A stretch of DNA of 55,625 bases from Prorocentrum cordatum (lineage: Eukaryota). The notes under the pieces were generated by a model. That model searched no databases. It saw only the letters and a list, made by a program, of their open reading frames with translations, and was not told the origin of the DNA. The stretch lies in contig CAUYUJ010000146.1 in the NCBI GenBank assembly GCA_963575745.1, forward strand, positions 62,001-117,625, in the 5' to 3' direction. Both the position numbers and the translations under genes were made by a program. Shown piece after piece: positions 1 to 30,600 of the stretch (position 1 is the stretch's first letter; the number at the start of each line of letters is the position of its first letter).

Positions 1-187
1 TCCGAAAAGCCCTCTTCTCGCCGACGCGGCATCGTCCCGTCCTTGTGTCGGGTTTCCTATTCCTCTTCTCGCCGATGCGGCATCGCCCGATCCTTGCGTC
101 AAGCTTCCTAACCTTCATGGCTGGCGATCTCGAACCCAAACGGCACGGCAGAGATCGGGGGCGGGACAAAGAACTGACACATGGAGC

Positions 188-393
188 GGGACCGGGACCG
201 GGAGCCCGGGACCGGGACCAGCACCGACACCGGGACCGGGACCGGGTCCAGCACCCCCGTTCCCGGTCCCGGTCCCGGCCCCGGTCCCGGTCCCGGTCCC
301 GTGGTCGGTTCTGCTGCTCGTCCAGGGCTCCCCGTCCCTGTCCCGCTCCCGGTCCCGGTCCCGCTCTCCCCCAGGTCCCGGTCCCGGTCCCGG
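188..393. repeat. Hexamer arrays in inverted orientation: (GGGACC)n then (GGTCCC)n
   Basis: GGGACC units at ~188-250 are followed by GGTCCC units at ~260-393, so the arrays could fold back on each other. Confidence 0.8.
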
Positions 394-644
394 TGTCGGT
401 CCTGGCCCCTGCAGGACCCCTCCTCCTCCTCCTCCTCTTGCTCGCCCTCCTTTCCCCCCCAGCAAAAAGCAAACGACGACGACGAGCACGGCGACAACGA
501 CCACGATTTCTTCAGCCGCTCAATGCGAGCGCCTGCCTCCTCGCGCGCGCGCGCGCCGAGCCCGCGCCTCAGATCTCTTATGATAACCCCCGCTGCTGCG
601 GAGACCGCCCCCGCTGCTGCGGAGGTCTCCGCAGCCGCGCGCCG

Positions 645-2994
645 TCAGCTGGAGTCGCTTGAAGGGCTGCGGCGCCGCGACAATGCCTCGAACGCGTCAC
701 TGTTGAACGCAAACGTGTCCGCAGGAAGCGGCGACTCCCTGGAAAGGAGCTGCGGCGGGGGAGGCTGCGGCGGCGGCCTCGGGACGAGCGGCGCTGCCAG
801 AGGGCGGGGCGTCTGCGACTCTCTTGGCAGGAGCCGCTTTGGCGGAGGGTGCGGCGGCTGGCTCGGGACGAGCCGCGGTGGCGCAGGGTGCGGTGTCTCC
901 TCCAGCGGGGGGGCCCCGCGGCGTCCTCCTCCACGCGGGGGAGATGGCGGTGGTGGTGGCATCATTGGCGGCATGCCTGGCGGACGGCATATCTGGCCTG
1001 GGAGGAGCGGGCGCCATGCCCTCGGCCTCAGCATCGCCTGGCCTGTGTGGGGTGGGTGCGCGGGCGGCGTGGGCAGGAACCGCCCTGCCCACGCCGCCCT
1101 GCGGTCGCCGCCCTCCACCTGCCCACTGCGTCTGGAGCGGCTGCGCCCCCTCTGCTCCTGCCCTCTGCGTCTGGAGCGGCTGCGCTCCCGCTGCTGCGAG
1201 GGCACTCTCCTCATTCGGTCTTTGCTCCTCTGCTCCCGCTTTCTGCGTGTGGAACGGCTGCCCCCCCGCTGCTGCGAGGGCTTCGCCCTCTTTGGGGTTC
1301 TGCTCCTGATATCTTTCTTCTTGTTTTTCTTCTTCTTCTTCTTCTTGTTTTTCTTCATCTTCTCCTTCTCCTTCTTCTCCTCCCTCTCACCTCTGTCAGG
1401 GTTGCTCTGTTCGTCCTGGGGCGGCGTGGGGCTGCAGAGGCCGACGGCGTCGCGCCCGTCGCCCTCAAGCTCCTCCTGGGCTCCGTGCGCCCCCGCTGCT
1501 GCGGAGGCTGCTGCTTCAGATTCTGTCTCCGCCTCCTCCTGGTCTCCGTGCGCCTCCGCTGCTGCTGAGGCTGTTGCTTCGGGTTCTGTCTCCGCCCACT
1601 CTCCCCGCTGTTTTTTCCCACTTGGCTTCCCGCTTCCGATCCTTCTTCCTGGCCGCGGCGCCTTTGCCAGACTTCCTGTTCTTGGCTTCTATAAAAACGA
1701 ACAATGTGTGGCAATGTTCCGTGAGGCGGTTCGCATCCTGGGCCTTGTGGATCACCCTGTGCAAGTGCGGCCAGTCATATGCATCCTGCTCCTTGCGCTC
1801 CGCGTCCGTGAGCCTGACCCAGGTCGGACGCGCCACCCAATCCAACTGGCGGTACTGCAGGCTGGTGAGGAGCCCCCAATGCTGCGGAGGCTGGGAAACC
1901 TGATTCAACCAGTGCGGCAGATCAGGCTGCCCGCCCGCAGGGCACTCGCGAACCTGAGCGGGGCCAAGAATCACGATGTAGTGCGGGTGCGTCACGTGAT
2001 AACCTTTTGTCGGACACCACAAAGCCAAGCCGAGTACGCCTGTACCAGACGCGCCGCAACTTCTGAGCAGCTCCGAAAGATCCTCCCTGTCTGCGTCAAA
2101 GATCCCAGCGAGAATACGCACTCGGTGCCACAACGCCAGGTTCCGCAGCCCGTTGCGGAAGTTTTCGGGCCACGGGTGCCCCGCGAGGCTCGTCTGGTGT
2201 CGGAAGAACACGCCCCCCACTGCTATGGAGAGTTTGCCTTCCTTTGCTTTCGGATTGTGAGCCACCGCTGCCAGGGTCACCGACCAGGCCTGAACCAGGA
2301 ACCTCCCGTGGCAGTGCCAGCGAAGCACCTCGCACTGCTCGACGCGCTCGGGAACCCAGAGGAGAGCCCCGACGCACTCGCGCGCGACCTCCCCGTGGAA
2401 GCCACTTTGGCGGATGAGATCGTCGAGATGTTGCTTCCGCCGATCGCGATTGATGCGTGCACCAGGCTCGAAGGAGACTAAGACGACCCCTTCGCGCCTG
2501 TCCCTGACAGCTGCGACCCAATCCGACAGGGGGGCGCCCGCGCGCAGGACGAGGGAAGCGAAAGCCAGATTCACGCGCGCCTCTGTCTGCCCCTCCTGCA
2601 CCTGGTCTTCGTCGTCGTACAGCAGGGGCACAAGAGGCTTGGAATGGCTCGGGCCGCGCTCTTCCGATGGGAAGTGCGGGCGGCCTTCCTCTGGGAAGCC
2701 CTCATGGACAGGAAGCGCTGGCGACCGAGCCTTCGAGGTCAAGGCGAGAGTCTTGATCACGCGGGCCCCCGCTGCTGCGGAGGAGCTTTCACGCAGATTG
2801 CGCGCTGCGATCAGAGCCTGCCGTTGTCGCCAATTAGTCGTGCAGGGAGATCTCGGTCTCGGGTCATCGGAGCCACCCTGTCCAGGCTCGATTACCACTG
2901 TGGCGGCGCCTGGCTCCACGGATGCCCCCGCTGCTGCGGACAAAAAAAAAGAAAAAAAAACAAAAAAGAAAAACAAGAAAAAAAAAAAAAAAAA

Positions 2995-3037
<43 letters not shown>

Positions 3038-3162
3038 AAAAAAAAAAAAAAAAAAAAAAATAAAAAAAAAAAAAAAACACAACAATGAGAAAAAAAAAAA
3101 AATAAAACAAAAAAAACAAAAAAAAAATATAAACAAAAAAAAAAAAACAAAACAAAAATAAG

Positions 3163-3202
<40 letters not shown>

Positions 3203-3603
3203 AAATAAAAAAAAAAGAGCGCCTCCTTAGCCGTTATGACTACAAGGCGGTTGGCGGCGGCCGTTAACTTCCGCGCCTCTTCGATCCGGCCATTCTCCAT
3301 CATTTCCTGAGCAACCAGCAGGCTCTGCGAAACGCTTTCCTGGGCACCAGACATCAACGAAAACAATGACCGAAGTTTCGTTGCAACCTCCCCCCCCGCT
3401 GCTGCGGAGGCCGGTGCTGGATCTGCCATTCCATGCGGAACTGCATCAGGGGCCTCCTCTGGCAGCCCCCGCTGCTGCGGAGACTTCGGCAGAGGTTCCT
3501 GCGCGGCTCCAGTCGCGCCAGGCTGCTCCATGCCCTGGGCCGCCCCCGTCGCGGAGGCGGGCGGGCGCGGCGGGGGGCGGACCTGCAACGGCTGCGGATT
3601 CAC
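645..3603 (-). pseudogene. Intronless gene of unknown function (cassette gene 1): globular core plus Lys/Arg/Ser- and Pro-rich tail; probable frameshift and A-rich insert
   Basis: ORF 1516..3603 has a globular-looking core (LYDDEDQV...HCHTLFVFIEAK). A shift in the T6 run at 1611-1616 joins it to the frame of ORF 645..1358 (KQRGEWAETEPEA...KKNKKK...RSRSRR...PPMMPPPP). An A-rich tract at 2941-3216 interrupts it without breaking frame. Start codon uncertain. Confidence 0.55.
2941..3216 (+). repeat. A-rich low-complexity tract
   Basis: About 275 nt of almost pure A with scattered C/G/T. Confidence 0.95.
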
Positions 3604-4493
3604 TTTATCGCAATGCCATCCCTCCCTGCGCTCAAATGACTTTTCCCCTTGCGCCAGTCTGCTGCTCCCACTTCTGAACTACCTCATCCCTTCTACCTCT
3701 GCCTGCTCCCTCCTCTTCCTGTTCAGTCCTCCCTCCTCCCTCCACCGCGCTCATTTCTCCTTGCTCCCTTCTCTGCTCCTCCTACGTGGGGCGTTTCACG
3801 ACAGCGACGACGACGACGACGCCGACGAGAACGATGACCACGACGGCGACAACGAGGGCAACGACGACCACGACGACGACGACGAGGACGATGACCACGA
3901 CGGCTACCAGCGACGACGACTAGCGACGACGACGATCGACGACGACGACGCCGACCACGACGACGACGGCGAGGACGACAACGAGCGACGACGACGACGA
4001 CAATCGACGCCGACGAGGAACGACGACGACGAACGAGGACGACGATTACGACGACGAGATGACGAAGGATCGAAGATCGAACCTCGAAGTGCGAAGCTTC
4101 GAAATTCAAACTTCGATCTTCGAACTCCGAACTTCCAGCTTCTAACTGCGAACGTCGCTGGGGTGCCAGGGATGGACTGGGATGGAGGGAAAATGGGAAG
4201 GAAAAGCGAGGAAGCGGGAGAGGAAGTTGGAGGAGAACGAACAGGCGTGGAGCGACGAGGAACGGGCGGCGAGGAGCCGACGTTGAGGGCGGCGGGATGG
4301 GGGGACAGGGAGGAGAGGGGGACTTCAAAACGAAAATCGCGCCACGGCGCCTGCACGCGCGCCCCCGATCTCGGCGGCCGACGCGCGCGCCCCTGCAGAA
4401 ATGCAACGCGCCCTTCATTCGAGCCCCGCTGCTGCGGAGCCACCTACTCCACAACCAAATCGTCTGGGGAGCTGTTCGGACCCCAAACTACTA
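3448..4493. repeat. ~1-kb direct repeat, copy 1 (intergenic spacer module)
   Basis: Aligns by eye with 5338-6331 from AGGGGCCTCCTCTGGCAG to CCCAAA(A)CTAC. Contains a CT-rich block, (GAC)n, 7-nt TTCGAA-type repeats and a GC-rich block. Confidence 0.95.
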
Positions 4494-5318
4494 GTTCTTC
4501 AGCCACTCGGCTCTTGCGAGTCCGCCCTCATGACAAGGGCAACCTTCACATGGGGACACTCAATGGGGTGTTGATTGAGAACGCCCCATGTGGCTGGTGG
4601 CAGGAACGGACGAGGGGGGGCGGATAGAGGAGCAGGACGAGCACTGGCAGGGGATATGCACCAGGAGAGAGATCTCATGGAGGAAGAGGAGGGGAGGGGA
4701 CGAGAGCCACTCATAATTAAGCGCACGCAGGCCCACGCACGTGCTCCATTTCTCAGCGACCGCCGCGCCGCCATGAGAACTGTCGTACCACCGCCGCTAC
4801 TGCGGCGGATGCGTGACCTCTCCCATCCCTGTCCTGCGCTGTTTCTGCTACCGCCCTCCCCCCTTCCAGCCAAGCTCGGGTTTCATGCTCGGAGACGGGC
4901 GCGGCTGGCGGCTCTTAGTGCGGGTGCGCGTGCTGCCTCCAACTCCTCATCCCCCTCCTCCTCCTCTCCTCATCCCCCCTCCTCTTCCTCCTCATCCTCC
5001 TCTATCGGCCCAGCTCCGATCGCCGCTCAGCTCTCCTGGTGCGGCTGGCGGCAAAAGTACCGAAAATTGCCTGGGGTGTCCTTCGCCGTCTTCTTCGACA
5101 TCTCAAGCATCATCTTGCCCTTCTCCTCGGTACGGCGCGCCTCCTCCATCATCTGCCGCGCCTGGTCGACGAGCATCTGGCCCTTCACTCCAACGGCGCG
5201 TGCATGGCGGCAACGATTGCGGCAACGATTGCGCCGTGGTCGCCCAGTGCCAAACGCTGCCCTCCGTCGCGATGAGCTCGAAGTCATCGACGTCGCACTT
5301 GCCCGCGATGCTCGCCAT
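4491..5318 (-). pseudogene. Degenerate small gene between the two spacer copies (coiled-coil-like segment, Cys-rich end)
   Basis: Fragments MASIAGKCDVDDFELIATEG, GQMLVDQARQMMEEARRTEEKGKMMLEMSKK and CEGCPCHEGGLARAEWLKN-TAG(4491-4493) lie in different frames. Confidence 0.3.
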
Positions 5319-5337
5319 AGCGGCGCAAAAACCGCGA

Positions 5338-6331
5338 AGGGGCCTCCTCTGGCAGTCCCCGCTGCTGCGGAGACTTCGGCAGAGGCTCCTGCGCGGTTCC
5401 GTCGCGGAGGCGGGCGGGCGCGGCGGGAGGCAGACCTGCAACGGCTGCGGCTTCACTTTATCGCATTTCCATCCCTCCCTGCACTCACGTGGCTTTTCCC
5501 ATTGCGCCAGTCTGCTGCTCCCACTTCTGAACTACCTCATCCCTTCTACCTCCATCTGCACCCTCCTCTTCCTGTTCAATCCTCCCTCCTCCCTCCACCG
5601 TGCTCATTTCTCCTTACTCCCTTCTCTGCTCCTCCTACGTGGGGCGTTTCACGACAACGACGACGACGATGACCACGACGGCGACAACGAGGGCGACGAC
5701 GACCACGACGACGACGACGAGGACGATGACCACGACGGCGACCAGCGACGACGACTAGCGACGACGACGACCGACGACGACGACGCCGACCACGACGACG
5801 ACGGCGACGACGACAACGAGCGACGACGACAACGACAATCGACGCCGACGAGGAACGACGACGACGAACGAGGACGACGATTACGACGACGAGATGACGA
5901 AGGTTCGAAGATCGAACCTCGAAGTGCGAAGCTTCGAAATTCAAACTGCGACCTTCGAACTCCGAACTTCAAACTTCGAACTGCGAACTTCGCTGGGGTG
6001 CCAGGGATGCAATGGGATGGAGGGAAAAATGGGAAGGAGAGAACGAGGAAGCGGGAGAGGAAATTGGAGGAGAACGAACAGGCGTGGAGCGACGAGGAAC
6101 GGGCGGCGAGGAGCCGACGTTGAGGGCGGCGGGGTGGGGGGACAGGGAGGAGAGGGAAGACTTCTTAACGAAGATCGCGCCACGGCGCCTGCACGCGCGC
6201 TCCCGATCTCGGCGGCCGACGCGCGCGCCCCTGCAGAAATGCAACGCGCCCTTCATTCGAGCCCCGCTGCTGCTGCGGAGCCATCTACTCCGCAACCAAA
6301 TCGTCTGGTGAGTTATTCGGTCCCAAAACTA
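5338..6331. repeat. ~1-kb direct repeat, copy 2
   Basis: Homologous to 3448-4493 with small indels. Confidence 0.95.
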
Positions 6332-7475
6332 CTGTTTGCCACCCGCTGCTGCGGACGCCGAGGGCCTGGTGCTGGACGCCGCGGCCCCGCTGCTGCGGGG
6401 CCCCTGAGAGGGCGTCGGCCCCCCCTTCTCTCTGGCGGCGTCGAACTTGACCTTGCGCTCCACACCGAGGTCCTTGTGCCAGCGAAAAGTTCCTGACCCG
6501 TCGCTCCCGCCCAAACCCGCGGTTGGTGGCCTCACCGTGTCCGCGTGGGGGGACGAGGGGCAGAGCTTCGACCTTCCTGTCGCCCCAGTGCGGGTGTAAA
6601 CGGACGCCTGTCCCGTCGTCGCGGTGCAACACGAAATCCCACATCGGCAGCTTCACTTTCACCCGCTGCCCCGCGAACTGTCGCGCGCGCACAATACTCT
6701 GACGCATGTGGTCGTAGCTGTTTGGCCGGACTTCGAGGGAACAGCCGATCAGAGCCCCGCTGCTGCGGGGCCCCTCCACGACCTCCCTGATATCTTCCTC
6801 CCTGAGCGTCGCCACCATCTCTTGCCACCGCCAAGGGACTTCCTCGTCGCTTTTGAAACCAAAGCTCGTCCTCGCACCGTGGTCGCAAACAGCGACCATG
6901 GTGGGCTCCGCATTGTCAAACCACTTGGCTTCTCACTCGAACGGGGCAGTTGGGTCTTCATTCAGATGGCGCCACCATTTCAACGCTTGATTGTGTTGCT
7001 GAAACGCCGTGCCGGGCCTCTCTTCATAACTCAAAACATAATTAACATCAAACTTCTCAAAATCCTGGGGCCCGCGCGCCGCCGCCGCTGCGGTGGCGCG
7101 GGGCTCCTGCGCCGCAGGCGCGGCTCGGGATCCCGACCCCTCTCCTGAAACTGTGTTCCCAGGTTCTGGTACGTTTCGGAGGGCAGCCCTCACGAAATTA
7201 TCGAATTCGGGCATGCCGAGACCAGGGGCGCGGGGGCTCACAACGCCAAGCGCGGCGAAGCGAGACGGCCGTTGAGGCGAGACCGCCGCCGCTGCTGCGG
7301 CGGCAGGGCCATCGCGCCATTTGGCGTCCTCCGTTGGCGTGTGCCCGTCTTGTCGCCAGTCTCTCCAACCCCTCGCTGACCAATCATGGCCGTCCTCCCA
7401 GCCACGCCAGCCGCTGCTGCGGCTATCCCACCATCCTCCCGCGCCATCCCATGTGTATCCGCCTGCATCGCCCAT
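6329..7475 (-). pseudogene. Intronless gene of unknown function (cassette gene 3) with an in-frame TGA and one frameshift
   Basis: ATG at 7475 gives MGDAGGYTWDG...QHNQALKWWRHLNEDPTAPFE, then TGA (6933-6935), then continues in frame EAKWFDNAEPTMVAV...PWRWQEMVATL...WDFVLHRDDGTGVRLHPHW. A probable shift near 6545 leads to PPTAGLGGSDGSGTFRWHK and TAG at 6329-6331. Confidence 0.65.
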
Positions 7476-7900
7476 TGCAAGACGATGGCGCAGGCGCGCG
7501 TTAGGCCGCGACGGGCCCAGCTGCACCGGTGCTCGCGGGCGATCCCACGGGCGCGGGATGGTTTGAGCATAGCGGCGACGGACGACGCGACGTGATTGGA
7601 CGGCGGAGAACTTGAAAGGAAGGGGGGTTGGAAACGAATGAACGAAGTGGACGAAGAGCGGAAATCGAACCAGAGGGGGGGCGAAAAAAGAGCGGAAAAG
7701 AATAAGGACATGCAGACGAAGGAGAGTGACGAGGTAGATGGCGGGCCAGAACGGCAACGGAGGATAATGTGGTGGAAATTGTGAAAAGGACGCATGGAAA
7801 AACACGACGAGGATCACAGACGCAAAGATGATGAGCGCAGTGGTAGCATGACATATCCGAAATCAAGAAGCAGGATGACGAGGAACGGGATGACGAGCAA

Positions 7901-8012
7901 CTCTGTCGCAGAGAGCCTCCGAACGCACCCCCTCTGTCACAGAGGGCCTCCGAACGCACCCCCTCTGTCACAGAGGGCCTCCGAAAAACACCCCCTCTGT
8001 CACAGAGGGCCT
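7901..8012. repeat. 3.5 tandem copies of a 30-31 bp unit containing the palindrome CCCTCTGT-C-ACAGAGGG
   Basis: Unit CTCCGAACGCACCCCCTCTGTCACAGAGGGC read directly. Confidence 0.9.
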
Positions 8013-8269
8013 CAATGATCACTTTAATGCGGCTTCTGGATTAGCATGGCCCCATGCATGCACTAGGACCGCATTAAACATAGCACCCTCCAGAAACCCT
8101 AAGATCGCCCTGATCCTCCTCCCCGCCCTCTCTGCACCTCTCATTAATCGCTTCGCTCATTCCGCCAGTCCATATGATTGCCTCGCCGCTGTCGTTTGTC
8201 GGGGTGTCGCTGTCAATGCGGTGCGGTTGGGCGGCTGCCAGTTTTCGGTGGCGGTGGGTGGCGGCTCAG

Positions 8270-8560
8270 AGGCCTCACGGATGTTGGTTGGGCTCGCGCG
8301 GTTGGCCTCTCAGGGGCCTTTGGGAGGCAAGTTTGAGGCCTCTTGTGGGCCGTGTTGGGGCCTCTTGGGGCCTCCTGGGGCCTCTTGGGGCTGAAGGCTG
8401 GACTTTGCGGTTCCTGGTCCCCTTCTTGGGCCCCTCTTGCGGCCGTTTTGGGGCTTTCTTGGGCCGTCTCGGTCGCCTCTTGGGCTGTCTTGGGGCTATC
8501 TTGGGCCGTCTTGGGGCCCTCTTGGAGGCTTCGTGGGCGGTCTTGGGGCGGTCTTGGAAT
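8270..8560 (+). repeat. Degenerate ~11-bp (GGGCCTCTTGG-like) tandem repeat of a dispersed family
   Basis: Same family at ~9860-10090, 10480-10790, 12570-12660, 12980-13620 and 34040-34200, and reverse-complemented at 31620-32235. Confidence 0.8.
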
Positions 8561-9300: not shown

Positions 9301-9490
9301 GTCGGCGCGTTGACCTAAGGAACGATACATAAATAAGGAACGAGGCCCCTTTTTCCCATAAGTTAAACTCCGATGTTCCATGGAAAACCTGGGGAGAACC
9401 CAAGGAGCGCTGTAAAACAACTAAAGGAACACGGAGCCCCTCCCAAACGAAAAGGGTTCCTTCTTCAGCGGCCCGACTCCACCGATGGTA

Positions 9491-9672
9491 CTCCAGATTT
9501 CGTAATAAAAGGGAGGGGGGGTCTGGACCCTCCAAGACAAGCCATTTCAGACCTCGCCCGTGGGAGAACCCTCCAAAACATAGTCCCCAGACCCCCCAGG
9601 CCCTCCAAGATAGCCTGGAAGAGACCCCCCCCCCGAAATGAGACCCCCCTCCCTTTATTACGAAATCTGGAG
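9491..9672. mobile_element. MITE with ~30-bp TIR and TA target duplication (Tc1/mariner-type), copy 1
   Basis: TA|CTCCAGATTTCGTAATAAA...TTTATTACGAAATCTGGAG|TA; second copy at 47337-47516. Confidence 0.9.
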
Positions 9673-10952
9673 TATGAAGAAAGACCCGCGCCCCGCGCTG
9701 CACATGATTGCAAAGGGATGGATCCGTCGCCAAGCCAAGTGCTGGCTTATCTATGGCCTTCGACCCATATCGCTACTGTGCCTGAGTTTTGGGCTAGAGA
9801 TTCTCGGATACCTGTCTGTTGGCATGCTTCTCGGGCGCCTCGTGGAGCGATTTTTGAAGCTTCTTGGGGCCTCTTTTTGGGCCCTTTGGGGCCTCTTGGG
9901 GGTCTGCCACTTGGAGTGGAGGGCTCGAGTTGTCAGATTGAGTTCCCGCTCTTGGATCCCTCTTGTGACCCTATTGGGCCGTCTTGGGTGCCTCTTGGAC
10001 CGTTTTGGGGCTGTCTAGGGCCGTCCTGGGGCCCTCTTGCCTCTTGGGCTGTCTTGGTGTGATACTTGGGGCCTCTAAGCCGTTTGGACGCTGTTAAGAC
10101 CCAAAATGCGAATATGCTAAAATGCGTGTTTCCCGTAAGGATGGGACAACTTTTGCCTCTCTCGGGGCGCAGGAGCCTTCTTAGGACGTCTCCGGAACCT
10201 CTTGAGCAGTCTTGAAACAATATTCGGGCGTCTTTGAGCAGGCCGCTCTGGTCGTTTTGTTGGTGTCCTCCGGAGCTATTTTGAACGGCGGGGGGGGCCG
10301 GGACGCCCCGGAAGGGGTCAAAATGTTGTAGGCCACAAGGAGGGGGGAGGGTGGGGGGGGGCAGGTGGTGGGGGGGATGGGGGGGGAATTCCTGGACAAT
10401 CACTCGCGCGCTTCGCGCACGCTTAGGTTCTAGTCGGTCACAAGCAATCGGGCCAGCGGGTGCTGGCCGTTGCGGAGTCCTCTTGGGACTGTCTTGCAGC
10501 CTCCGTCAGGTCCCCTTGGTCATTCCTATGCCGTCTTCGAGCCTTCTTGGGACATCTCTGGGCGCTCTTGGGTCGTCTTGGGGCCATCCTGGCCCTTCTT
10601 GGGCTCCAATGGCGGCTATCTTGCGGTTGCCCTGGGCCGCCTTAGGACCCTCTTTCGGCCCTCTTCGGGCGCTACGTGGGACATCTTGGTGGCTGGGTGC
10701 CCTCGGGGAGCCTGTGATTGGTCTACGGGGGGTCTTCCAAGATCGTTGAGTCCTGGGGTGTGGTCTTGGGAGTCTTGGGGCCGTCTGAATTGCGCCTCTG
10801 AGGGGTATTGCGCACGCCGAATAGCGCTAGCACCAACGCTACGAACCCCGTGATCCCGAAGCTAACAAGACAAAGGGCGCGAAAAGGAGGGAAGATGGCG
10901 GAGGGATGGAGGGAAGGGTTGCGACAGGGATGGCGGATGCAAGCATAACATG

Positions 10953-11582
10953 TTTCGGCGCCGTGTGCGGTCATCTGTTGCTGGAAATTAACCGCAGTGA
11001 TGCTCGCTGGCGGCCTTACCCGTGCTCGAGGCGGCCACGAAAAAAGGTTCGGCGCCGCGTGCGAGCATCTAGTGCTGGAAATTAACCGCAGTGATGCTCG
11101 CTGGCGGCCTTACCCGTGCTCGAGGCGGCCCAACAAAAACTGATTCGGCGCCACGTGCGAGCATCTAGTGCTGGGAATTAACCGCAGTGATGCTCGCTGG
11201 CGGCCTTCCCCTTGCTCGACGCGGCCACGACAAAAGGTTCCGCGCCGCGTGCGAGCATCTAGTGCTGGAAATTAACCGCAATGATGCTCGCTGGCGGCCT
11301 TCCCCTTGCTCGACGCGGCCACGAAAAAAGGTTCGGCGCCGCGTGCGAGCATCTAGTGCTGGAAATTAACCGCAATGATGCTCGCTGGCGGCCTTCCCCT
11401 TGCTCGAATCGGCCACGAAAAAATGTTCGGCGCCGCGTGCGAGCATCTAATGCTGGGAATTAACCGCAATGATTGATGATCACTGGTGGCCTTGCCCGTG
11501 CTCGAGGCGGCCCAACAAAAACTGGTTCGGCGCCGCGTGCGAGCATCTAGTGCCGGAAAGTAACCGCAGTGATGCTCGCTGG
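10953..11582. repeat. 94-bp tandem satellite, ~6.5 copies
   Basis: CTGGAAATTAACCGCAGTGATGCTCGCTGGCGGCC recurs at 10981, 11075 and onward with 94-nt spacing. Confidence 0.95.
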
Positions 11583-12685
11583 AGCTCTTGAGGAGCTCAC
11601 GGCTCCAGTGAAGTAGTGGCCCAGAGACCGTTGCAACCTCTAGTGTTGAAAGCGATCAACGCAGATCGAAGAAAGACGAAATACCAGGAACAACGCTTCC
11701 GTATAATTCCGTGCGACACCCTGCAATGCAATGAATGTAGAAGCGCTACGATGCAACGCAGTTATACGGAAACCATATGTATGGTCAATGCAACGCAAAG
11801 CATTGCAAGCAGAAGTGAGGACAGCATATGCTAGACAATGCCACGCAATACAAGCCGAGGCAAAGCGCAGCCATGTGGACCAAAGACCGATGAAGCACGA
11901 GGTCGTCGTCGTCGGCGTCGTCGGCGTGGCCGTCGTCGTCGCGGTCGTCGTCGTAGTCGGGGTGGTGCTCGTGGTCGTAGCCGACGCCGAAACAGACATC
12001 CCTCGTCGATCCTGGAGGGTGGAGGCCCACTCTCACCAGGGCGGCGGCGGGCACTGCAGAGGAGAGCGGGAGCTGCAAGCAGCAGCCTCGATTCCGACTC
12101 CACTCGGACCGGGGCCGCGGGCCACTCGGACTTCGCTCTGAACGGATATTGGGTAACCCGACGCTGAATCGGGATGTTCGTTGGCATTGCGCGGGCACTC
12201 CTCCTCCAAATTCAGTTTCCTCGTCGGACTGGCGGTGACAATCATGTTCCCGGAATGATCTCCAGTAGCATGATGGTGTAGGCCGTGTCGGGGCCCTCGT
12301 GGGGGGGTCCAAGATTGCACACATGAAGGTGGACAACCGGAAGGACGGCCCAATGGAATCAGTCGAAAAACTTTGAGATGGGGAGTGGGGAAATGGAGCT
12401 TAGAACTGACATGTAGAAGGTATAAAGTGACAGAGCAAGTACGGCTGGAGCTGGGAAGGCCACGAAAAGGAGGGTGAGCAGAACTGGGGCTTACCACAGC
12501 GACCATAATGATTTTGGGCCCATCCCGCCGCCTTCCTGGGTTCGGTGGGAAGGCGACGGAGGCCGCGCGGGGGCCTCTTGGGGCTGTTTCTGGGCCTCTT
12601 GTCTTTGACCATCCTTGGCCGTCTGGGACGCCCCTGGGGCCGCCTTGGAGTCTGCGTGGGCGTCTGTTCGCCGTTTTCCTTTCCT

Positions 12686-12692
12686 TTCCTCC

Positions 12693-12724
<32 letters not shown>

Positions 12725-12731
12725 CTACATA

Positions 12732-12762
<31 letters not shown>

Positions 12763-12914
12763 ACATATCCTCCTCTTCCTCCTCCTCCTCCTCCTCCTCC
12801 TCCTCCTCCTCCTCCTCCTCCTCCACCTCCTCGCCCTCCTCCTCCTCCTCCTCCTCCTTCTCCTCCTCCTCCTCCTTCTCCTCCTCCTCCTCCTCCTCCT
12901 CCTCCTCCTCCTCC
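12686..12914. repeat. (CCT)n/(GGA)n microsatellite
   Basis: Read directly. Similar tracts at 14265-14388, 36217-36357, 37844-37905, 42790-43250, 46967-47017, 48240-48390, 49810-50147 and 55110-55245. Confidence 0.95.
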
Positions 12915-13769
12915 ATTCCTTTTCTTCAGAAATAACACTAGAACCATCGCGCGCGCTTTGCGCGCGCTCAAGTTCTAGCGAGCTTCTTGGGGCCTCCTCG
13001 GAGCATCCTGGACTGCTTCTTGAAGTCGTCATGGGACCTTCTTGGCATGTCTTCGGGGGCCTCTTAGAAAGGGTTTTGAAGCCTTTTGGGTGCCGTCTTG
13101 GGGCCTCTTGGAGCCTCTTTTGGGCTTCTTGGGAGCCTCTTGGGGCCTCTTGGGGGCCTCTTGGGGCCTCCTCGGCGCTTCCTGGCGGCATCTTGGGGCC
13201 TCTTGGGGGCATCTTGGGGCGGAGAGCTTGATTTTTGGGTTCGCGTTCCCTCTCTTGGGCCCCTTTTGGGGCCTTCTTGGGACCCTCTTGCGCCGTCTTG
13301 GGCGGCTCTGGGGCCGTCTCGGGGCTCTCTCGGGCCGTCTTGGGGCTCTCTTGGGGGCCTCTTGGGCCGTCTTGGAGCGGTTTGGGGAGCCTCTTGGACG
13401 GTGCTTTAGCGCCGGAAACACGAAACAGCGAGAATGCACAAAACATAAAAACAAATCAAAATCAACGATTTTGCCCTCTCGGGGCGCTCTTGAGCGGCAT
13501 CTTAAAGGCCTCTTGGGGCGTCTTGGGGCCTCCGGGGCAGTTTAAAACGCATCGTGCGTCGCCAAAGGCCCCTGGAAGGCGTCTTGGGGGTGTCTCGAGA
13601 CCGTCTGGGGCCACTGGGATTGCTGTCTGAGGGCTCCCCGGGGCGATTCTAGGCCTCCCAGAGGCGGGCCCGGGCCCCGGGCCCCACATTTGCGGTCGAA
13701 ACTCCGAGCCCTGGCCCCCGGACCCGGTCCCCCGTTATATGAATATTCTCCGCAGCGCGGAGGAGAGCT

Positions 13770-15598: not shown

Positions 15599-18500
15599 TC
15601 AAATCCAGGACCGCGCCCTGCGCCGCTCGATCAGCGGCCGCAGCATGTACTCGGGGTAGGTGCGGTCGGGTCCGCTCCGGCCGTGGATCGAAACGGTGGC
15701 CGTCGCGTGGCGCTGTGGGACGACGGCAATCTCGACCTCGGCGGTGCCGGCGCCGGGGCGGACGTCGACGCCGTGCGGGTCGTCGTTGTCGCTGGAGCGC
15801 AGGGGCGACAGCGAGGGGGAGGCCTCTGGGGACCTGATCCGCGAGCGGGTCGTCGGAGACCGCGGGCTCGGGCTCGGGCTCGGCGGCGGGACGATGTCCC
15901 TGGGCTCTGGCCCGCTCGCGGGCCCCACGACCGTGCCCGTGAGGAAGCCCTGCTCCGCTCCCAGGTACACCTGCACGGGAGTGCCGCGGTCGAAGCGCCT
16001 CCTGTGAAGGGGCCCCAGGACACACAAATAAATACACACAAATAAAAACATGCCCCATATTTTCCTATATCTTCTGGGTTTTTGTTCCCCCCCCAGTTCC
16101 CATACTTTCCCATATTTTCCTGGGAGTCGACGACTGATTGTGTCTGTGTGTTTTTCCCCTCCTGATCCTGAGGCGCTTGCCCGGCATGCTCTTGAGCACG
16201 GGCAGGTCCTCCTCCTGCATCGGGCTGCTCTCGGGGCTGCTGCTGGGGTTGCCGTCCTCCTGTCCGATGGGCAGCCGCGGGGCCTGTGCCGGCCCGCTGC
16301 TCGTCAGCGCGTCGCCGCCAAGCGGGGGCACCTGCGGCACCGAGCCGAGCTCCGCGCTGCCAGCGACGTCCTGATCGCTGCTCCTCCTCCTCCTCCTCCT
16401 CCTCTCCTCCTCCTCCTCCTCCTCCTCCTCCTCCTCCCCTCCTCCCCTCCTCCTCCCCTCCTCCTCCTCCTCCTCCTCCTCCTCCTCCTCCTCCTCCTCC
16501 TCCTCCTCCTCCTCCTCCTCCTCCTCCTCCTCCTCCTCCTCCTCCTCCTCCTCCTCCTCCTCCCCCTCCCCCTCCCCCTCCTCCTCCTCCTCCTCCTCCT
16601 CCTCCTCCTCCGCCAGCGACGTCCTGATCGCTGCTCCTCCTCGGCCGCCTGCGTCTTCCGCGGCCTGGTCTCTCCTCGTACTGGTTCCCCTGGAGCTCCT
16701 TCTGGGCCTTGAGCTGTCTGGCGTGCTCCAGCATCTCCGTCTTGAGCTCGCTGTGCTCCAGCGCGACGTCATACCCGAGCCTCGGGTCCCGCGCCTCCCT
16801 CGGCGCCGCGTGTATGATGGCCGGGTACCAGTCCCCGTGCTTCTTGGAGAACACGCTCACCTTCTCACTCACACTGAACGGCAAGCGCAGGTTCTTCATG
16901 TCCGCGTTGGGTACGCGCTGTCTGGCGGCCATGACAAAAAGGTCGTACGTGAAGACGTTCATGCCGTGCTCCTCGCTATGGTAAGGCTGGCCCCTGATGT
17001 CCATGACCCTCGCACCTAACCACGAGTTCGTGGTCTTAGACCAATACTCTACAACGTCGCCGACGGCGTACGCAGTCGCTGTGCCCTTCGGTTCGGGCGC
17101 TGCCTCCGGCTCTATCATGATCACGGTCTCATCCGCCCTGGGCGCCTTCGATGTCGCTCTCTTCACCATGGCATCCTCGGTATCTACGTGCAACCGGTAG
17201 GAGACCCACTCCATTTTGTCCAGACCCTTGATCCACTGGCGTTCCTTCCAGATGATCCGGTCGAAGTCGCCGTCGAAGAGGACCTCGTCCGACTGCTCCT
17301 CCAGCGGCAGCACCTCCACGCCGCAGACGCGCAGCTGGTCGAGGAGCGACAGGACCTCGTTGCACCTCTCGTCCCGGGGGGCGCTCGGGGAGCCCAAGAC
17401 GAGCTTGCACTCCGGGGCGTCTGGGGACCCCCGGAATCCCCTGGCGTCCTCCTCGCCGTCGACCTTCAGGACGTACTCGTCCTGCTCCGCGTCGTAGAGG
17501 ACCGAGATGTCGTGCGGGAGGCCGTCGGCCACGCGCGTGCTCCCTAGCAGGAACTCCTTGCCGATCTGCCAGGCGGCGACGCCCCCGCGGATCAGCAGGC
17601 CTTTTGCCTTCCCGACGGGTCGCATCGGCTCGACCTCGGAATAGACCTTGGCGACGAGCAGCGCGTTCGTGGCCAGGGTCCTCACTCGGACCTCGAGCTC
17701 GAACTCCACCTCGCCGCCCAAATTCAGATCCACGTGCTCGATGGGCTCCCCACTGCTCGGCGTCAGGATGGCGCGGCCCGCCTCCCGCTCGTGCTGGAAG
17801 AAGGCGAAGAGCCCATCGCCGAGCGAATACTTGAGCCTCGTCTTGGAGACGCCGTCCTCGGTGGAGAAGCCGTTGTCCCGGGTCCAGTCGATGGTGGTGC
17901 CCCTGCTCTCGCCGCCCTTCACCTGTACGCGGAACGTGCCGCCGACGGGCTGCCTGCACATGTTCCTGACGTACCAGATGGATAGGAAGCAGCAGATGGC
18001 GGATGAGAAGGCGATGGCCGCGGACACGCAACCCGCCTGTACCTCGCAGCCTTCGCCTGTCTCCTCGTCCGGGCCGCTGGGGCACGTCCAGTCGTACGGG
18101 CACTGGATGTACGACCTGCAGGGGAGCGAGCTTGGCTCGAACGAGTCCTGCGTGAAATCTGGGGGCGCGTTTGCGTTGCACAGGTTGGTGTTGCTGGTCA
18201 GGCAATCGACGTCGCGGGTGACTTCACCCTCGCCGCACGTCGTGCTGCAGACGGACCACTCTGTCCTGTCGGGTCGGGCGAAAGGGGGGGATAGCAAAGG
18301 GGGGGTTTGAGAATCAGCTCACGTAGCTGATTTTCCCGGCGCCTCCCGGCGCCGGGAGGCGGCCATGTATCGAGGAATGGGCCCCTCGGTGGGCCGAAAC
18401 CAGCTGCATGCAGCAAATTTCGTAACCCCCCCTTTCCCAATCCCCCCCTTTCGTCCTCCCCGCTCCTCGCTCCCTCCCCCCCCTCCCCCCTCCCCCTCCC

Positions 18501-21500
18501 CCTCTTCCTCCCCCTCTTCCTCCTCCTTCCTCCTCCTCCTCCTCCTCCCTCCTCCTCCTTCCTCCTCCTCCTCCCCTCCTCCTCCTCCTCCTCCTCCTCC
18601 TCCTCCTCCTCCACAATTACACAATATGAAAACACTCTCCCACTTCCCCTGATGGCGTCCCGAAGATATCCGACCCCCCCCCGCGTATTGTTTTTTACAC
18701 ACAAGATTCCCGGGAACGGGTTTTCGCTGGTGTTTTTTTCAAAATGCTGCTCTCGCCGAGGCGCCGGCCTCATTTTCGGGCCCCGCTCGTTCCGAATCGT
18801 GCTCCCGCTGCAGCGCTGGCCTCATTTCCGTGCTTCCGCTCGTTCCGAATCGTGCTCCCGCTGCAGCGCTGGCCTCATTTCCGCGCTTCCGCCCGTTTCG
18901 ACTCGTGCTCCCGCTGCAGCGCTGGCGTCATTTCCCGTGCCATGCCACAGCACACGCGCACACACACACACCACCACCACCACCACCACCACCACCACCA
19001 CCACCACCACCACCACCACCACCACCACCACCACCACCACCAGCAGCAGCAGCAGCAGCAGCACCACCAGCAGCACCACCAGCAGCACCACCAGCAGCAC
19101 CACCAGCAGCACCACCAGCAGCACCACCAGCAGCACCACCAGCAGCACCACCAGCAGCACCACCAGCAGCACCACCAGCAGCACCACCAGCAGCACCACC
19201 ACCACCACCACCTCCACCATCACCAGCACCAGCACCAGTACCAGCACCAGCACCAGCACCAGCACCAGCACCAGCACCAGCACCAGCACCAGCACCAGCA
19301 CCAGCACCAGCACCAGCACCAGCACCAGCACCACCACGCACACCACGCACGCACGCACGCACGCGCACCACCACCCACTAGTCCGCGGATAGAGAAAATC
19401 AGCGCCATGGTAAGGGATGGGAGGGTGGGGTAGGACGTCAGATATGACGCGCGCGCACCTAGCTTGTCCTCCCCCCCCCTCCTCCTCCTCCTCCTCCTCC
19501 TCCTCCTCCTCCTCCTCCTCCTCGATCCTCCTCCTCCCCCCCTTTCGTCCGGCCCGATCCTGGCAGCCCAGCGCGCCACGGGCAGGCTCTGGAGGGCGGT
19601 CGCGGGCGCCCCGGCGACGACCGCGGCCGTGCGGAGGCCCGCCGGCACCGCGACGCCGGCCTCCTCTGTGACTACCTACCAGACCACCCCAACCCAACCC
19701 GAAGACCCGAATTTCGGGCTGGGGGGGGGTAAGGGCTCCACATGTGTTTTTTCGATGTTTCCCGACCCCCCCCCCACTGGAAATCGAGGGTAAATCTGAG
19801 CCTTCGGGTTGGGTTGGGGTGGTTTGGTGGGTGGTGACTCTCGCCATCGCTCGGACGTCCATTTCCCGTGCATTTTTCGGTCTCGTGCGTGCTTTTTTCT
19901 TGCTCGAGGGTCCACGATCGTCCTCAATGGTTCTCGCCGAGGAAAAATGCACACGTCCGAGCGATGCCAGGTCCTGCAAGAAGCTGACGAAACTACGGGT
20001 GAAATTGCCCGTCCCGAGGCCAGCCAGGCCACCCTCGATTGCCGTGCGGTCGTCAATCGGGTACAGCTGGAGGCACAGTTTGACGAACAGCCCCTCCTCT
20101 CCTGTTGAAAGCCTCGCTGGAAGGCCAGACGCTGAGTCCGAGTTCAGGTCCTTCATCTCCAGCAAATAAACCTGCTCTGGGCGCAGGCCTAAAACGTCGC
20201 CGAACGCGCTCTGCATAGGAGCCCTGGTCCCGCCACCAGCCCACTCCGCCATAATGCCCGAGTTCGCCTGACCGGCAACGAACGCAATCTCCACCAGCAA
20301 GACCTCGACACGTTCGAGCGCCTCCGCGTCCGCATCGGAGACGCAGACCACCGGAATCATCTCAAACGAGCCCAAGGTGCAATTGATTGGCTCAACCAGC
20401 TGGTAACCGTCATCGCAAACTGGCGAGCACGACTCACGGCTTGCAATACCGATGCAAGACGAGCTGTCGGCCACGTTCAACATGCCAGGCGGCGAGAATG
20501 CGTAGCAACGCGATTCTGTGCAAGACCCGTCACCCTTTGACAGATTGTATGACGTGTCGGCTGTACACTGAACTGAGATGGAGGTCCCAAGTAGGTTCTC
20601 GTAGCCTTCGGAACAAGCTATGCGGCATGTCTCGGGGTAAAGCATGTTTCCGCAATTTGCATCCTCTGTCTCATAACCGGTCGGCAATGCTGGACTGCCA
20701 ACACATGTGTTAGGCACGCAGTCAGCACGTCCCTCGAACATCTCCGTCTCGTCGCTGCAGACCATTGTCCCATTTACAACATGCCCCACACCACAAACAG
20801 GCTCGCAAACGTCTCCATATTCAATGCCCGAACATTCGATGCATACTATGGTGTCCAACCCCGATGATGAAGTGAAGCTGGGTCCACTTATCCTGACAGG
20901 AATACCAGCGAACACAGGAAGAGCACATACACAGCACGTTGTGGACGCTGGCTGGCTGGCTAGCTAGCTGGTGGCTGGCTAGCTGCCGCCGCGCCGGGCC
21001 AGGAGCAACTGCTGCGACAGTGGCGACTGCGGGTCTCTCAGCAGGCGTGGTATCGAGGAGGCCGGCTTGTGATTGCCACGGACGGGGCGTGCTGGAACCA
21101 GCAGCTGGGATGGGCTCGCCGGGCCGGTCTGGGCATCTACGTGGGCCCTCGGTGCGGCAACCTCAGTGCAGCTCTCCCCGGCATGGATCAATCCAGTGGG
21201 CGCGCCGAGCTCCTCGCCATCATTCTGGTCTTCGCCGAGGCTGGCCGGCTGGGGCTGCAGGTGGAGATCTTGACGGACTACGAGTGCGCCGCCAAGGCTT
21301 GGGCAGCGTGGAGCGGAGGCCCGTCCTTCCACCCCAGGGAGCAGCTGGATCTTTGGCGCCGCCTGGAGCCCCTCGCGCGGGCGGCCCTCGCAGCAGGTTC
21401 CGCCCTCACCTGGGTCGCTGCGCACGGCCGTGCGGCGCACGAGCAGGAGCTGAGGTGGAACAAACTTGTTGACGACCTCGCCGTGCAGGGGTCCAAGCGG

Positions 21501-30500: not shown

Positions 30501-30600
30501 CGGCGATGGTGCCCAAAAGCAGTTTCACGAGCGTCAGGACAAAATGTTGACGCACGTGCGTGGCCGTGTGCGCCGAGGCTGGTGGCAAACCATCTGTCAT
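15599..30600 (-). CDS. Giant (~3,650 aa) mucin-stalked type I membrane protein: signal peptide, 6 Cys modules, PTPA and Thr/Ser stalk, Sushi-like Cys repeats, TSP1, TM, laminin-G-like and Tudor/SH3-like repeats
   Basis: Segments 30600-22952, 20931-19967, ~19845-19839, 19675-19560, 18265-16624, 16370-16168 and 16001-15599 join in one frame once the TSD-flanked insertions are removed (frames checked by coordinate arithmetic). Hydrophobic leader [24 protein letters not shown]1 motif [37 protein letters not shown]. May be inactivated by the LINE insert. Confidence 0.75.
16002..16167 (-). mobile_element. Introner-type intron (GA-AG) made by a 161-bp element (16005-16165) with 5-bp TSD TCCTG
   Basis: TSD at 16000-16004 and 16166-16170; removal gives KRLR|RRFDRG in frame; homologous free copy at 50174-50328. 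Confidence 0.85.
16371..16623 (-). other. Predicted GA-AG intron formed by a ~30-bp exon duplication flanking a (GGA)n tract
   Basis: GCCAGCGACGTCCTGATCGCTGCTCCTCCTC at 16359 and 16612; removing 253 nt restores the frame [14 protein letters not shown]. Confidence 0.7.
18266..19559 (-). mobile_element. Introner-type intron (GA-AG): TIR element 18269-19557 with 5-bp TSD TCCTG and a nested ~1.1-kb simple-repeat insert
   Basis: TSD at 18264-18268 and 19558-19562; TIRs match the MITE at 14832-15026; removal gives ARWAAR|TEWSVC in frame. Confidence 0.85.
18760..19335. repeat. Three ~55-bp tandem units followed by (CAC)n, (CAGCAGCACCAC)n and (ACCAGC)n microsatellites
   Basis: CGTGCTCCCGCTGCAGCGCTGGC occurs three times, then the simple repeats. 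Confidence 0.9.
19674..19835. mobile_element. TIR element (ACCAGACCACCCCAACCCAACCCGA family) inserted in an exon; probable intron
   Basis: About 30-bp TIR; direct repeat GTGACT at 19668-19673 and 19834-19839; second copy at ~44608-44785. Confidence 0.8.
19846..19965. mobile_element. 120-bp TIR element (CATCGCTCGGACGT) inserted in an exon
   Basis: 14-bp perfect inverted repeat, GCC duplicated on the flanks; removing 123 nt gives FLQDLARVT. Confidence 0.7.
20948..22951 (+). mobile_element. 5'-truncated non-LTR retroelement fragment (RNase H plus C-terminal CxxC) with 16-bp TSD
   Basis: TSD CAGCACGTTGTGGACG at 20932-20947 and 22952-22967. Confidence 0.85.
21069..22682 (+). CDS. RNase H1-like domain protein fragment (LINE ORF2 C-terminus)
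   Basis: Motifs [37 protein letters not shown] and VCERCG. Confidence 0.85.
   Translation: MIATDGACWNQQLGWARRAGLGIYVGPRCGNLSAALPGMDQSSGRAELLAIILVFAEAGRLGLQVEILTDYECAAKAWAAWSGGPSFHPREQLDLWRRLEPLARAALAAGSALTWVAAHGRAAHEQELRWNKLVDDLAVQGSKRHTGLQRLTQAIRLKEANQEKAQAVQRHMVRCIVLWGRQEEEEEEEEEEDEVGEEEGEEDAPGGPGPEDLAAADPPSGEPAPSGAALAAVALEQADFPRYPWQHQARATRQLILGPPVTLHSGNWMMGSHDRYHAMRWYLGQLRFDAAASEVGTTWAELAVDFELSTGVELAPPGSAMAARAQKFADVASRAWQLSTPRQQRQRGGNRQRALGDLTVVSRVTALVALGFKQGPGVTSRAIFVQPFTYEVLLRAAQRGQAERRHAHLQWRPDYAGGPAPTMPAAVRHGPPAPPVAAAKRVTAERMAAGHNAVAERKRQEHNAVADSQGLHVLGPIPPGADNSQPVVCERCGRQTQKMRLAKFKREACAAASGGRGGGGGAAPAARRGGGRGGGGG
27905..30190 (-). repeat. ~1.14-kb intragenic tandem duplication; each copy has three 4-Cys modules plus PTPA repeats
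   Basis: 27905-29036 is nearly identical to 29045-30190 ([16 protein letters not shown]... occurs twice). Confidence 0.95.

Follow-up and report, generated by a model that had tools for sequence, protein, structure and literature searches.

Gene regulation in dinoflagellates is mainly post-transcriptional, and to our knowledge few cis-acting RNA signals are known in these organisms. The described systems that come closest to the locus reported here are the 3' stem-loop of histone mRNAs with SLBP, the iron-responsive elements, the dispersed packaging-signal stem-loops of single-stranded RNA viruses, the attC sites of integron cassettes and, among dinoflagellates themselves, tandem gene arrays with conserved intergenic spacers, which are described in passages of two papers (PMC2488372, PMC5032977). 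The locus lies at the left end of a 55.6-kb stretch of Prorocentrum cordatum contig CAUYUJ010000146.1 (hereafter the window, meaning the whole of that stretch) and consists of a unit of three minus-strand genes, which we call B, C and A, and their spacers. We read the region from position 1 to at least 8330 as a decayed copy of an amplified B-C-A unit of the dinoflagellate nuclear genome, in which a hairpin on the sense strand would be a selected tag read on RNA by a protein, the unit itself being probably selfish; taken as a whole, we give this reading an even chance of being correct. Its descriptive part, namely the decayed copy, the amplified three-gene unit and the selected sense-strand hairpin, is well supported. 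From there we infer that RNA, and not DNA, is what is read, that a protein encoded by the unit reads the hairpin, and that the unit amplifies selfishly.

With the dinoflagellate tandem arrays the unit shares co-directional, multi-copy genes and a repeated spacer, but its repeated spacer and leader stand before different genes, and in this copy its genes form a pseudogene set lying among satellites. Like the histone stem-loop and the iron-responsive elements, its hairpin has a short GC-rich stem and a 4-nt loop located after the stop codon of several genes (at +25 and +46 nt for gene A and +47 nt for gene B), whereas its copies are mostly intragenic, number up to about ten per gene, differ in sequence and have a hypothetical reader. 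The viral packaging stem-loops also come in many copies of one format, on the sense strand, within coding sequence and with covarying stems; the unit, however, has no capsid, gag or reverse transcriptase gene, its tag is common to three genes and their spacers, and the loop of that tag differs between lineages although the core of the stem is kept. As for integron cassettes, the likeness is one of idea only: both have a strand-specific hairpin site tied to the junctions of gene modules, but the unit lacks an integrase, its hairpins are 18-24 nt long and mostly intragenic, and its host is a eukaryote.

The earlier note on this DNA, which was made from the letters alone, had drawn attention to a 12-mer confined to the region. 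This 12-mer, CCGCTGCTGCGG, occurs 14 times in the window, always on the plus strand and always within 590-7422, against a chance expectation of 0.02, and none of 100 shuffles reached 14. Allowing up to one mismatch gave 24 rows window-wide, 21 of which (20 sites) fell within 590-7422 in a single orientation (expected 1.17). On the sense (minus) strand the 12-mer forms the core of a hairpin with a stem of 7-10 bp and a 4-nt loop (consensus CU-CCGC-AGCA-GCGG-GG), present at 22 sites (Table 1) that are distributed over coding sequence in all three frames, the shared 5' leader, the sequence after the stop codons of A and B, and the region downstream of C. Stems of at least 7 pairs, with G·U allowed, were formed at 15 of 21 sites on the sense strand versus 5 of 21 on the antisense strand. 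When folded as 24-mers, the sites averaged -13.95 kcal/mol in sense and -11.5 kcal/mol in antisense, with the sense version more stable at 20 of the 22 sites, and 500 control 24-mers from the same strand and region averaged -3.8 kcal/mol. This G·U-dependent asymmetry between the strands favours sense RNA and, with it, an RNA-type reading. A scan for stems of at least 7 pairs recovered 15 hairpins with the AGCA loop, which were confined to the minus strand of 597-7418, the rest of the 55.6 kb having none, and a covariance model found nothing at E <0.1 outside 584-7428. Other hairpin clusters of the window (minus strand at 19.0-19.4 kb, plus strand at 27.7-29.1 kb) were discarded as artefacts that arise when TGGTGC/GGCGCT simple repeats pair with G·U allowed.

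To evaluate covariation, 26 hairpins were aligned, comprising the 22 of the window and four from a metagenome contig locus, L001. Paired cells amounted to 81.5% in this alignment versus 72.0% in shuffles, and the covariation score was 0.326 versus 0.157 (for each measure, none of 500 shuffles reached the observed value), falling to 0.08-0.14 when the partners were slid. The outer pairs vary yet stay paired, as illustrated by pair 4-21, which is CG in 12 hairpins, GC in seven, UG in five, UA in one, and other or unpaired in one. Among single sites, the hairpin at 5359 differs from its twin at 3469 by the change of one pair from U·G to U-A, and the one at 2211-2234, which encodes the conserved peptide LSIAVGG, folds at -10.0 kcal/mol in sense versus -2.1 in antisense. 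The core at 1876, decayed in the window, is intact (1878 A>G, 1879 A>C) in all of the depth of X1, X2 and X7 (X-numbers designate public sequencing runs). A joint in X2 that links 1512 to 6385 (20-nt sides, 28 letters between) was considered as a deletion form and was taken instead as a contig with two hairpin copies.

Depending on the frame, the hairpin core is read as SAAAG, PQQRG or RSSG, and because it lies in all three frames as well as in non-coding DNA, it does not represent a protein motif. In close relatives of A and B these hairpin peptide words number 4-8 per protein, compared to 0.07-0.36 in shuffles. A changed loop, consisting of AGU plus one base, would be read as AAVAx, RS[CR]G or PQ[LS]R, and such words were found in distant relatives both of gene A (eight in P0035, four each in P0055 and P0057; P-numbers designate relative proteins) and of gene B (four in P0024, two each in P0019 and P0023). 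The DNA of L001, which holds a gene A relative 37% identical, carries four sense-strand hairpins of the form CCGC-AGU[CU]-GCGG, to which the covariance model adds a fifth. No Pfam family was found for the open reading frames (ORFs) of L001, and the second of them had no usable match in the protein atlas. The ends of this contig gave the impression of sequencing-adaptor remnants.

The position of individual hairpins is also conserved. At the orthologous gene B site located before AL[IV][GS]C, the window and P0012 read RSSG, P0024 reads PQSR and P0023 reads RSRG; the hairpin format is kept there and the reading frame through it differs. In protein A, the conserved LLRSCGA is hairpin-encoded in L001, and the same place reads LLRSSGA in P0028, whose other words are of the AGCA type. 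Relatives of 31-54% identity retain hairpins at orthologous sites where the neighbouring residues have diverged and the frame is a different one. Selection for the hairpin acts on the nucleic acid and not on the protein.

At least three co-oriented, intronless minus-strand genes without an assignable family had been noticed in this region, and the analysis bears this out. Genes B, C and A follow each other in this order and in one orientation, no Pfam family was found for any of them, and the ORFs of their relatives are uninterrupted and collinear with the window, from which it follows that the three genes have no introns. All three are broken in the window copy. The surplus base at 1611 in gene A is absent in 87.4 of 128.2 of the depth in X1, 153.9 of 192.9 in X2 and 5.5 of 5.5 in X7, and that at 6547 in gene B in 86.5 of 226.9, 244.4 of 553.4 and 7.44 of 7.44, respectively. 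As these bases are missing from part of the public-run depth, intact and broken copies coexist.

The relatives of gene A that are collinear with the window copy encode 831-849 aa (P0004, P0008, P0010), and protein A, of about 850 aa, consists of a helical N-terminus, a predicted EEP-fold domain and a basic tail rich in K, R and S. The window copy begins with GTG where relatives have Met. Its T-rich run (275 nt) abuts a hairpin and stands in place of about 16 codons, where relatives carry SAAHSKASAPARPPQAA; an intron or trans-splicing tract was considered for this run, which has a 3' pyrimidine run followed by CAG, but no frame-preserving donor could be found by eye. The frame of the gene A tail differs among copies, for example between P0007 and P0008, and a single gene A cluster contains seven proteins of unequal lengths that are at least 90% identical. 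P0003 is a mosaic in which an unrelated N-terminus is joined to a gene A fragment. The idea that this N-terminus could be a second, canonical EEP half was abandoned, as BLAST similarity was confined to residues 249-346 and Pfam was empty, and so was a homology between gene C and the N-terminus of gene A, for which BLAST showed no similarity. Protein A relatives are represented by 41 cluster representatives, and because all 41 have at most 900 aa, none of them is fused to a reverse transcriptase.

An AlphaFold2 model of the protein A core (27 sequences; pLDDT 87.1, pTM 0.83) indicates that this core has a strongly diverged EEP fold, a four-layer alpha/beta sandwich. In structural comparisons with VIA-align the model reached Z 14.8 with 3l1w (198 aligned residues, root-mean-square deviation 2.9), 14.4 with PDE12, 14.3 with TDP2 and 12.7-12.8 with the L1 and TRAS1 endonucleases. 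Altogether 248 chains had Z of at least 8; among the 50 entries listed, Z ranged from 12.4 to 14.8 over about 200 residues, and the entries inspected by title were EEP-type enzymes, including Nocturnin/CCR4 and sphingomyelinase. Foldseek gave 60 matches at E<=0.001, with an L1 endonuclease as the best (E 1.9e-5). Solved EEP chains are 6-15% identical to the protein in sequence, and no Pfam family was detected for six ORFs of the window (E<=0.1), six close relatives of A (E<=1) or 20 of the 41 representatives (E<=0.01); a profile search of PDB sequences returned a low-complexity match only. Catalytic positions were assigned by the order of motifs on the alignment and the strands of the model, not by residue-level superposition. 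Assigned in this way against the canonical set (Asn, Glu, Asp-x-Asn, Asp, Asp-His), the Glu after strand 2 (SFEPG) and the final His (CHTLF) are conserved, GDxN reads G-I-F-D, and His and Cys occupy two catalytic Asp positions. As protein A would retain just two of the catalytic residues, this Glu and this His, its nuclease activity is putative. On the model, protein A resembles the EEP superfamily (TDP2, PDE12, CCR4/Nocturnin, neutral sphingomyelinase, LINE-1 and TRAS1 endonucleases) in the fold of its core, but differs from it in having no Pfam match, a catalytic set that by motif order appears mostly replaced, the helical N-terminus and the K/R/S-rich tail. Unlike the endonucleases of non-LTR (LINE) elements, it is not fused to a reverse transcriptase, and none is present in 1-8400.

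Searches by fold, which placed protein A, gave no usable match for protein B. Fourteen relatives of gene B were found on other contigs (229-345 aa, 31-96% identical). In the protein, a W-rich N-terminus precedes a beta-rich core without a known fold; its AlphaFold2 model has a pLDDT of 57.8 overall and of about 80 in the core, and the best Z in a structural search of the whole PDB was 5.3, too low to name a fold. No match at E<=0.001 was obtained among the viral structures of BFVD, no Pfam family was found, and the protein atlas gave no usable match. One relative, P0013, reads past the stop codon into the start of the duplicated block described below. The relatives of gene C are P0065 (83% identity) and P0066 (66%). 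Its window copy is frame-shifted and contains, at 5207-5233, a tandem duplication of 12 bp, and its product, for which Pfam gave only a weak match to DUF4423 below the cut-off, is probably a short helical protein.

The duplicated spacer of about 1 kb that had been seen between the genes is real: its two copies (3448-4492 and 5338-6333) are 89.3% identical over 1051 columns. On the sense strand, the block opens with a 3' flank that has a hairpin at its start; low-complexity spacer sequence made up of (GTC)n and a 7-mer repeat comes next, and a 5' leader that includes a second hairpin closes the block. The leader of copy 1 is part of the longest gene A ORF. One contig of X2 departs from the window sequence at 5328, near the leader and block end at 5338. 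The block alignment, the read-through of P0013 and this departure show together that one leader really does precede two genes, C and A. The weaker spacer-like block reported after gene A (420-644) is indeed loosely alike, as it shares with the duplicated block, in the same order, a hairpin, a GC-alternating run, GCAGGCGC and GAAGAARTC. The proposal of interchangeable cassettes is hence borne out in part, by the same leader before C and A, but the genes are three defined ones and not an open set of orphans. At the right edge, the palindromic iterons and the hairpin that had been described are present, as 3.6 copies of a 31-bp unit, each with an internal 7-bp palindrome, followed by an 11-bp inverted repeat; taken together, 7880-8095 folds unexceptionally (z = -1.59; an equal or better fold in 14 of 200 shuffles). 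A promoter and terminator scan re-found only the 7-bp palindromes, and its sigma-70 (bacterial) model is not meaningful for a eukaryote.

The unit is not a purely local duplication, since relatives of all three genes occur on other contigs, and those of genes A and B probably lie together on one NCBI contig of 9,123 bases. Between 46 and 60% of the sampled 31-mers are present in three organisms and several metagenomes. In X2, depth is 291-901 over 401-8000 (two simple-repeat bins aside) versus 0.8-1.3 over 10801-11600, and single X2 contigs within the unit have depths of 119-220 versus 2.9 for a 100%-identical contig at 11457-11638. This excess hints strongly at many copies of the unit, and as about 40-60% of the depth carries the frame shifts of the window copy, broken copies are common. 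The low-depth interval includes a 94-bp tandem repeat (10954-11582; 6.6 copies, 88% matches) with near-zero depth in public runs, which is rare or specific to the assembly. The contigs of X20, a run guessed to be RNA, cover 7241-7982 and simple repeats, and no conclusion on expression was drawn from them. An element boundary near 8080 had been proposed; depth at 8208-8331 nevertheless equals that of the unit, so that 8080 is not a copy-number boundary and the iterons and inverted repeat lie inside repeated DNA upstream of gene B. No inverted repeat pairs 7900-8090 with other window sequence, the left end of the unit being beyond base 1. Within the 55.6 kb the unit is not repeated, and only the block of spacer and leader recurs, before the different genes C and A. 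No description of the hairpin motif, the genes or the unit was found in the literature searched, including the review PMC12787238, which was examined for stem-loops and hairpins. Papers that contain the 12-mer string are, judged by title among the matches listed, unrelated work on other organisms.

Table 1. Features of the window and of locus L001. Positions are those of the window unless preceded by L001; hairpins are named by the position of their cores.
Feature	Position	Strand	Remarks
Gene A, broken copy	645..3603	-	Collinear with relatives P0004, P0008, P0010
Gene A 3' flank, spacer-like block	420..644	-	Loosely alike the start of the duplicated block
Homopolymer (A-run) with 1 surplus base	1606..1611	-	Shifts frame of gene A tail; frame switch versus relatives
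T-rich run on sense strand (A-rich on plus strand)	2940..3221	-	Inside gene A; period 1, 275 copies, 79% matches
Gene C, broken copy	5027..5318	-	98-99 aa in relatives, matched in two frames
Gene B, broken copy, about 345 aa	6329..7475	-	P0012 (345 aa) spans both window ORFs in alignment
Homopolymer (G-run) with 1 surplus base	6547..6552	-	Shifts gene B frame; C-terminal part aligns in other frame (6332-6652)
In-frame stop in gene B	6933..6935	-	Ser in relatives; window APFE*EAKWF versus P0011 APFESEAKWF
Duplicated block, copy 1	3448..4492	-	Precedes gene A, follows region downstream of gene C
Duplicated block, copy 2	5338..6333	-	Follows gene B, precedes gene C; 37-bp deletion versus copy 1
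Hairpins 590, 611	584..628	-	25-50 nt after gene A stop
Hairpins 1188, 1266	1182..1283	-	In 78-bp tandem duplication, gene A tail
Hairpins 1493, 1556	1487..1573	-	In 63-bp tandem duplication, gene A tail
Decayed hairpin 1876	1870..1893	-	Gene A
Hairpin with AGCA loop and changed, still-paired stem	2211..2234	-	Covariance model E 0.018
Hairpins 2769, 2928	2763..2945	-	In gene A
Hairpins 3396, 3469	3390..3486	-	N-terminal leader of gene A
Hairpin 4426	4420..4443	-	Start of block copy 1
Hairpin variant with AGUA loop	4788..4811	-	Perfect 7-bp stem; downstream of gene C
Hairpin 5359	5353..5376	-	Leader, 38 nt upstream of gene C start codon
Hairpins 6267, 6343, 6387	6261..6404	-	Around gene B end; loop of 6267 with CAG insertion
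Hairpin 6757	6751..6774	-	Gene B; relatives carry hairpin-type peptide there, other frames
Hairpins 7082, 7289, 7411	7076..7428	-	N-terminal part of gene B
31-bp unit, 3.6 copies	7901..8013		93% matches; about 430 nt upstream of gene B start
11-bp inverted repeat, 36-nt spacer	8032..8089		Arms about 8032-8042 and 8079-8089
Hexamer microsatellites	183-402		Ten GGACCG units, then 24 CCCGGT units; downstream of gene A
10-11-bp satellite-like unit (TTGGGGCCTC and variants)	8333-8560, 9850-10060, 10500-10700, 12400-13500
Thrombospondin type 1 domain (E 4.5e-6)	15631-18318	-	N-terminus of 895-aa open frame
RNase H domains (E 1.7e-7, 1e-4)	20964-22682, 44917-47241	+, -	Retroelement remnants unrelated to unit
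2701-aa open frame without Pfam match	22807-30912	-	Overlaps long opposite-strand frames
Reverse transcriptase domain (E 3e-7)	39511-40269	-	Retroelement remnant unrelated to unit
Second, unrelated open frame of L001, at least 273 aa	L001:1552-2424	+	Downstream of gene A relative; carries one lineage hairpin

The window is rich in repeats and has a G+C content of 62%. To the right of the unit, where host-like DNA had been expected, lie instead satellites of a 10-11-bp unit and, further right, remnants of RNase H and reverse transcriptase. The TTGGGGCCTC satellite has very high depth in public runs, up to about 40,000 in X1, and its minus strand would encode repeats of the PKTAQEAP type. No Pfam family was found for the ORFs in 8.7-10.5 kb. 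The high-depth repeat segment at 9489-9588 abuts, in a contig of X20 that adjoins 9489, a stretch that we take to be part of the dinoflagellate spliced leader in reverse complement, and it may hold a relic leader in a retroposed copy; no spliced-leader relic was found in 1-8400, and elsewhere in the window there were two weak matches versus 1.85 expected. The thrombospondin type 1 frame is the sole clearly host-type domain seen in the window. Simple repeats of GGCGCT/TGGTGC abound in the region of the 2701-aa frame. On the other side of gene A, the GGACCG/CCCGGT tract forms a long imperfect palindrome of about 220 nt with arms of 67 nt that are 84% complementary.

On the reading that we prefer, the transcripts of the unit would carry many copies of a hairpin with a stem of at least 7 pairs built on CCGC/GCGG and the 4-nt loop AGCA, which would most likely be the tag by which a protein recognises the RNAs of the unit. 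The reader may be encoded by the unit itself, either as protein A, with its basic tail and predicted EEP fold, or as protein B, and the tag could serve the handling, sorting, stability or copying of RNA. Several points weigh against this. A reading of the hairpin by proteins A, B or C is hypothetical, and most canonical catalytic residues of the EEP fold appear to be replaced in protein A. The hairpin copies are paralogous and not orthologous, so that the shuffle test overstates their independence, and about 17 sites are independent, given that three pairs derive from local tandem duplications (21, 63 and 78 bp) and two from the 1-kb block. In the distant relatives, L001 excepted, changed-loop hairpins are deduced from peptide words. 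Among the sources that contain 31-mers of the stretch no run is recorded as RNA, and transcription is therefore presumed. Public-run depth is not copy number, and does not distinguish tandem from dispersed arrangement. Domain scans of the window revealed no recombinase, transposase, integrase, reverse transcriptase, capsid or replication gene in the unit, in agreement with the absence of a visible recombinase or capsid gene reported in the earlier note; the only reverse-transcriptase-like ORF of the window lies 31 kb away. Neither a target-site duplication nor a matching terminal repeat was found in the window, and the downstream end of the unit lies left of base 1. Of the earlier proposal of a single integrated mobile unit, relatives elsewhere and the excess depth speak for one amplified unit, but mobility itself is hypothetical.

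A serious rival to a selfish unit is an ordinary host multigene family, that is, a co-directional dinoflagellate array, neither selfish nor mobile, whose hairpin is a post-transcriptional regulon tag for a host RNA-binding protein, comparable to the histone stem-loop or the iron-responsive elements. We regard this as possible but clearly the less probable reading. It would fit the multi-copy, arrayed condition with conserved spacers that is common for dinoflagellate genes according to passages of PMC2488372 and PMC6027434, the hairpin soon after the stop codon of each gene, the lack of a mobility gene in the Pfam scans and the apparent synteny of B and A relatives on another contig. It accounts poorly for three broken genes whose frame shifts are common to a large share of the depth, for a copy embedded in satellites and retroelement remnants, for gene A tails that change frame between copies (P0007 versus P0008), for mosaics such as P0003, and for a unit without tandem repetition in 55 kb. 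That the region is an integrated element derived from a virus or plasmid, as the earlier note had also suggested, seems highly improbable: orphan genes, tandem palindromic repeats resembling the iterons of origins and the basic tail of protein A would be in line with such an origin, whereas IMG/VR yielded no confirmed locus related to A or B, gene B had no viral fold match at E<=0.001, and window scans gave no capsid, polymerase or Rep gene. The hairpin 17-mer had eight matches in IMG/VR, all single, so no viral contig carries a hairpin array.

The hairpin itself could have a different role, or none. It might act on DNA or during copying, as a structure-prone site of breaks or template switches through which copies trade leaders, gene bodies and tails, and the EEP-fold protein might do the cutting; the cassettes of the earlier note correspond to this possibility. 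The T-run of gene A begins at the base adjoining hairpin 2928, the block ends at 6333 and 3448/5338 are 4 and 15 nt from hairpins, and the points where contigs of X2 part from the window sequence (1487 and 5328) have a hairpin 0 and 25 nt away. By a rough estimate about 24% of positions lie that near a hairpin, which for four of five independent points gives a probability of about 0.01, and the leader shared by two genes and the fusion of an unrelated N-terminus to a gene A fragment in P0003 point the same way. The breakpoints are few, however, and were picked after the fact, contig ends in a de Bruijn graph tend to fall at repeats, the G·U-dependent asymmetry suits RNA better, hairpins persist at orthologous sites in conserved coding sequence with no exchange seen, and no recombinase is present; we consider a role on DNA quite unlikely. 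Least of all, at a level of probability as low as that of a viral origin, do we expect a motif without function, a CAG-type repeat seed within GC-rich DNA that duplication and gene conversion would have spread among copies. The core does contain (GCA)2, local tandem duplication produced several of the copies and one has a CAG expansion, but the motif has strictly one orientation, its outer stem covaries, its loops change under a kept stem, it does not occur in the other 47 kb despite their wealth of trinucleotide repeats, and it is retained at the orthologous sites of diverged relatives despite changes of residue and frame.

The preferred reading, a protein-read RNA tag on a probably selfish unit, has a wider form that we rate as rather unlikely. 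In it, the unit would belong to undescribed selfish multi-gene elements of dinoflagellates that put a lineage-specific hairpin bar code on all their RNAs, within coding sequence too, and read it with their own proteins, the hairpins would serve also as joints for the exchange of leaders, bodies and tails, and the diverged EEP-fold protein would be a structure-specific nuclease. If this were true, the unit would be a eukaryotic, RNA-tagged analogue of cassette systems. At a more immediate level, the locus defines three unannotated protein families, one of which is, on its predicted structure, a new and strongly diverged branch of the EEP nuclease fold, and its 20-nt hairpin is a directly testable bait for the reader protein. 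With one hairpin written some twenty times into three unrelated genes and the DNA between them, and retained at orthologous sites of relatives despite changes of frame and loop, the locus clearly shows selection for nucleic-acid shape prevailing over protein coding.

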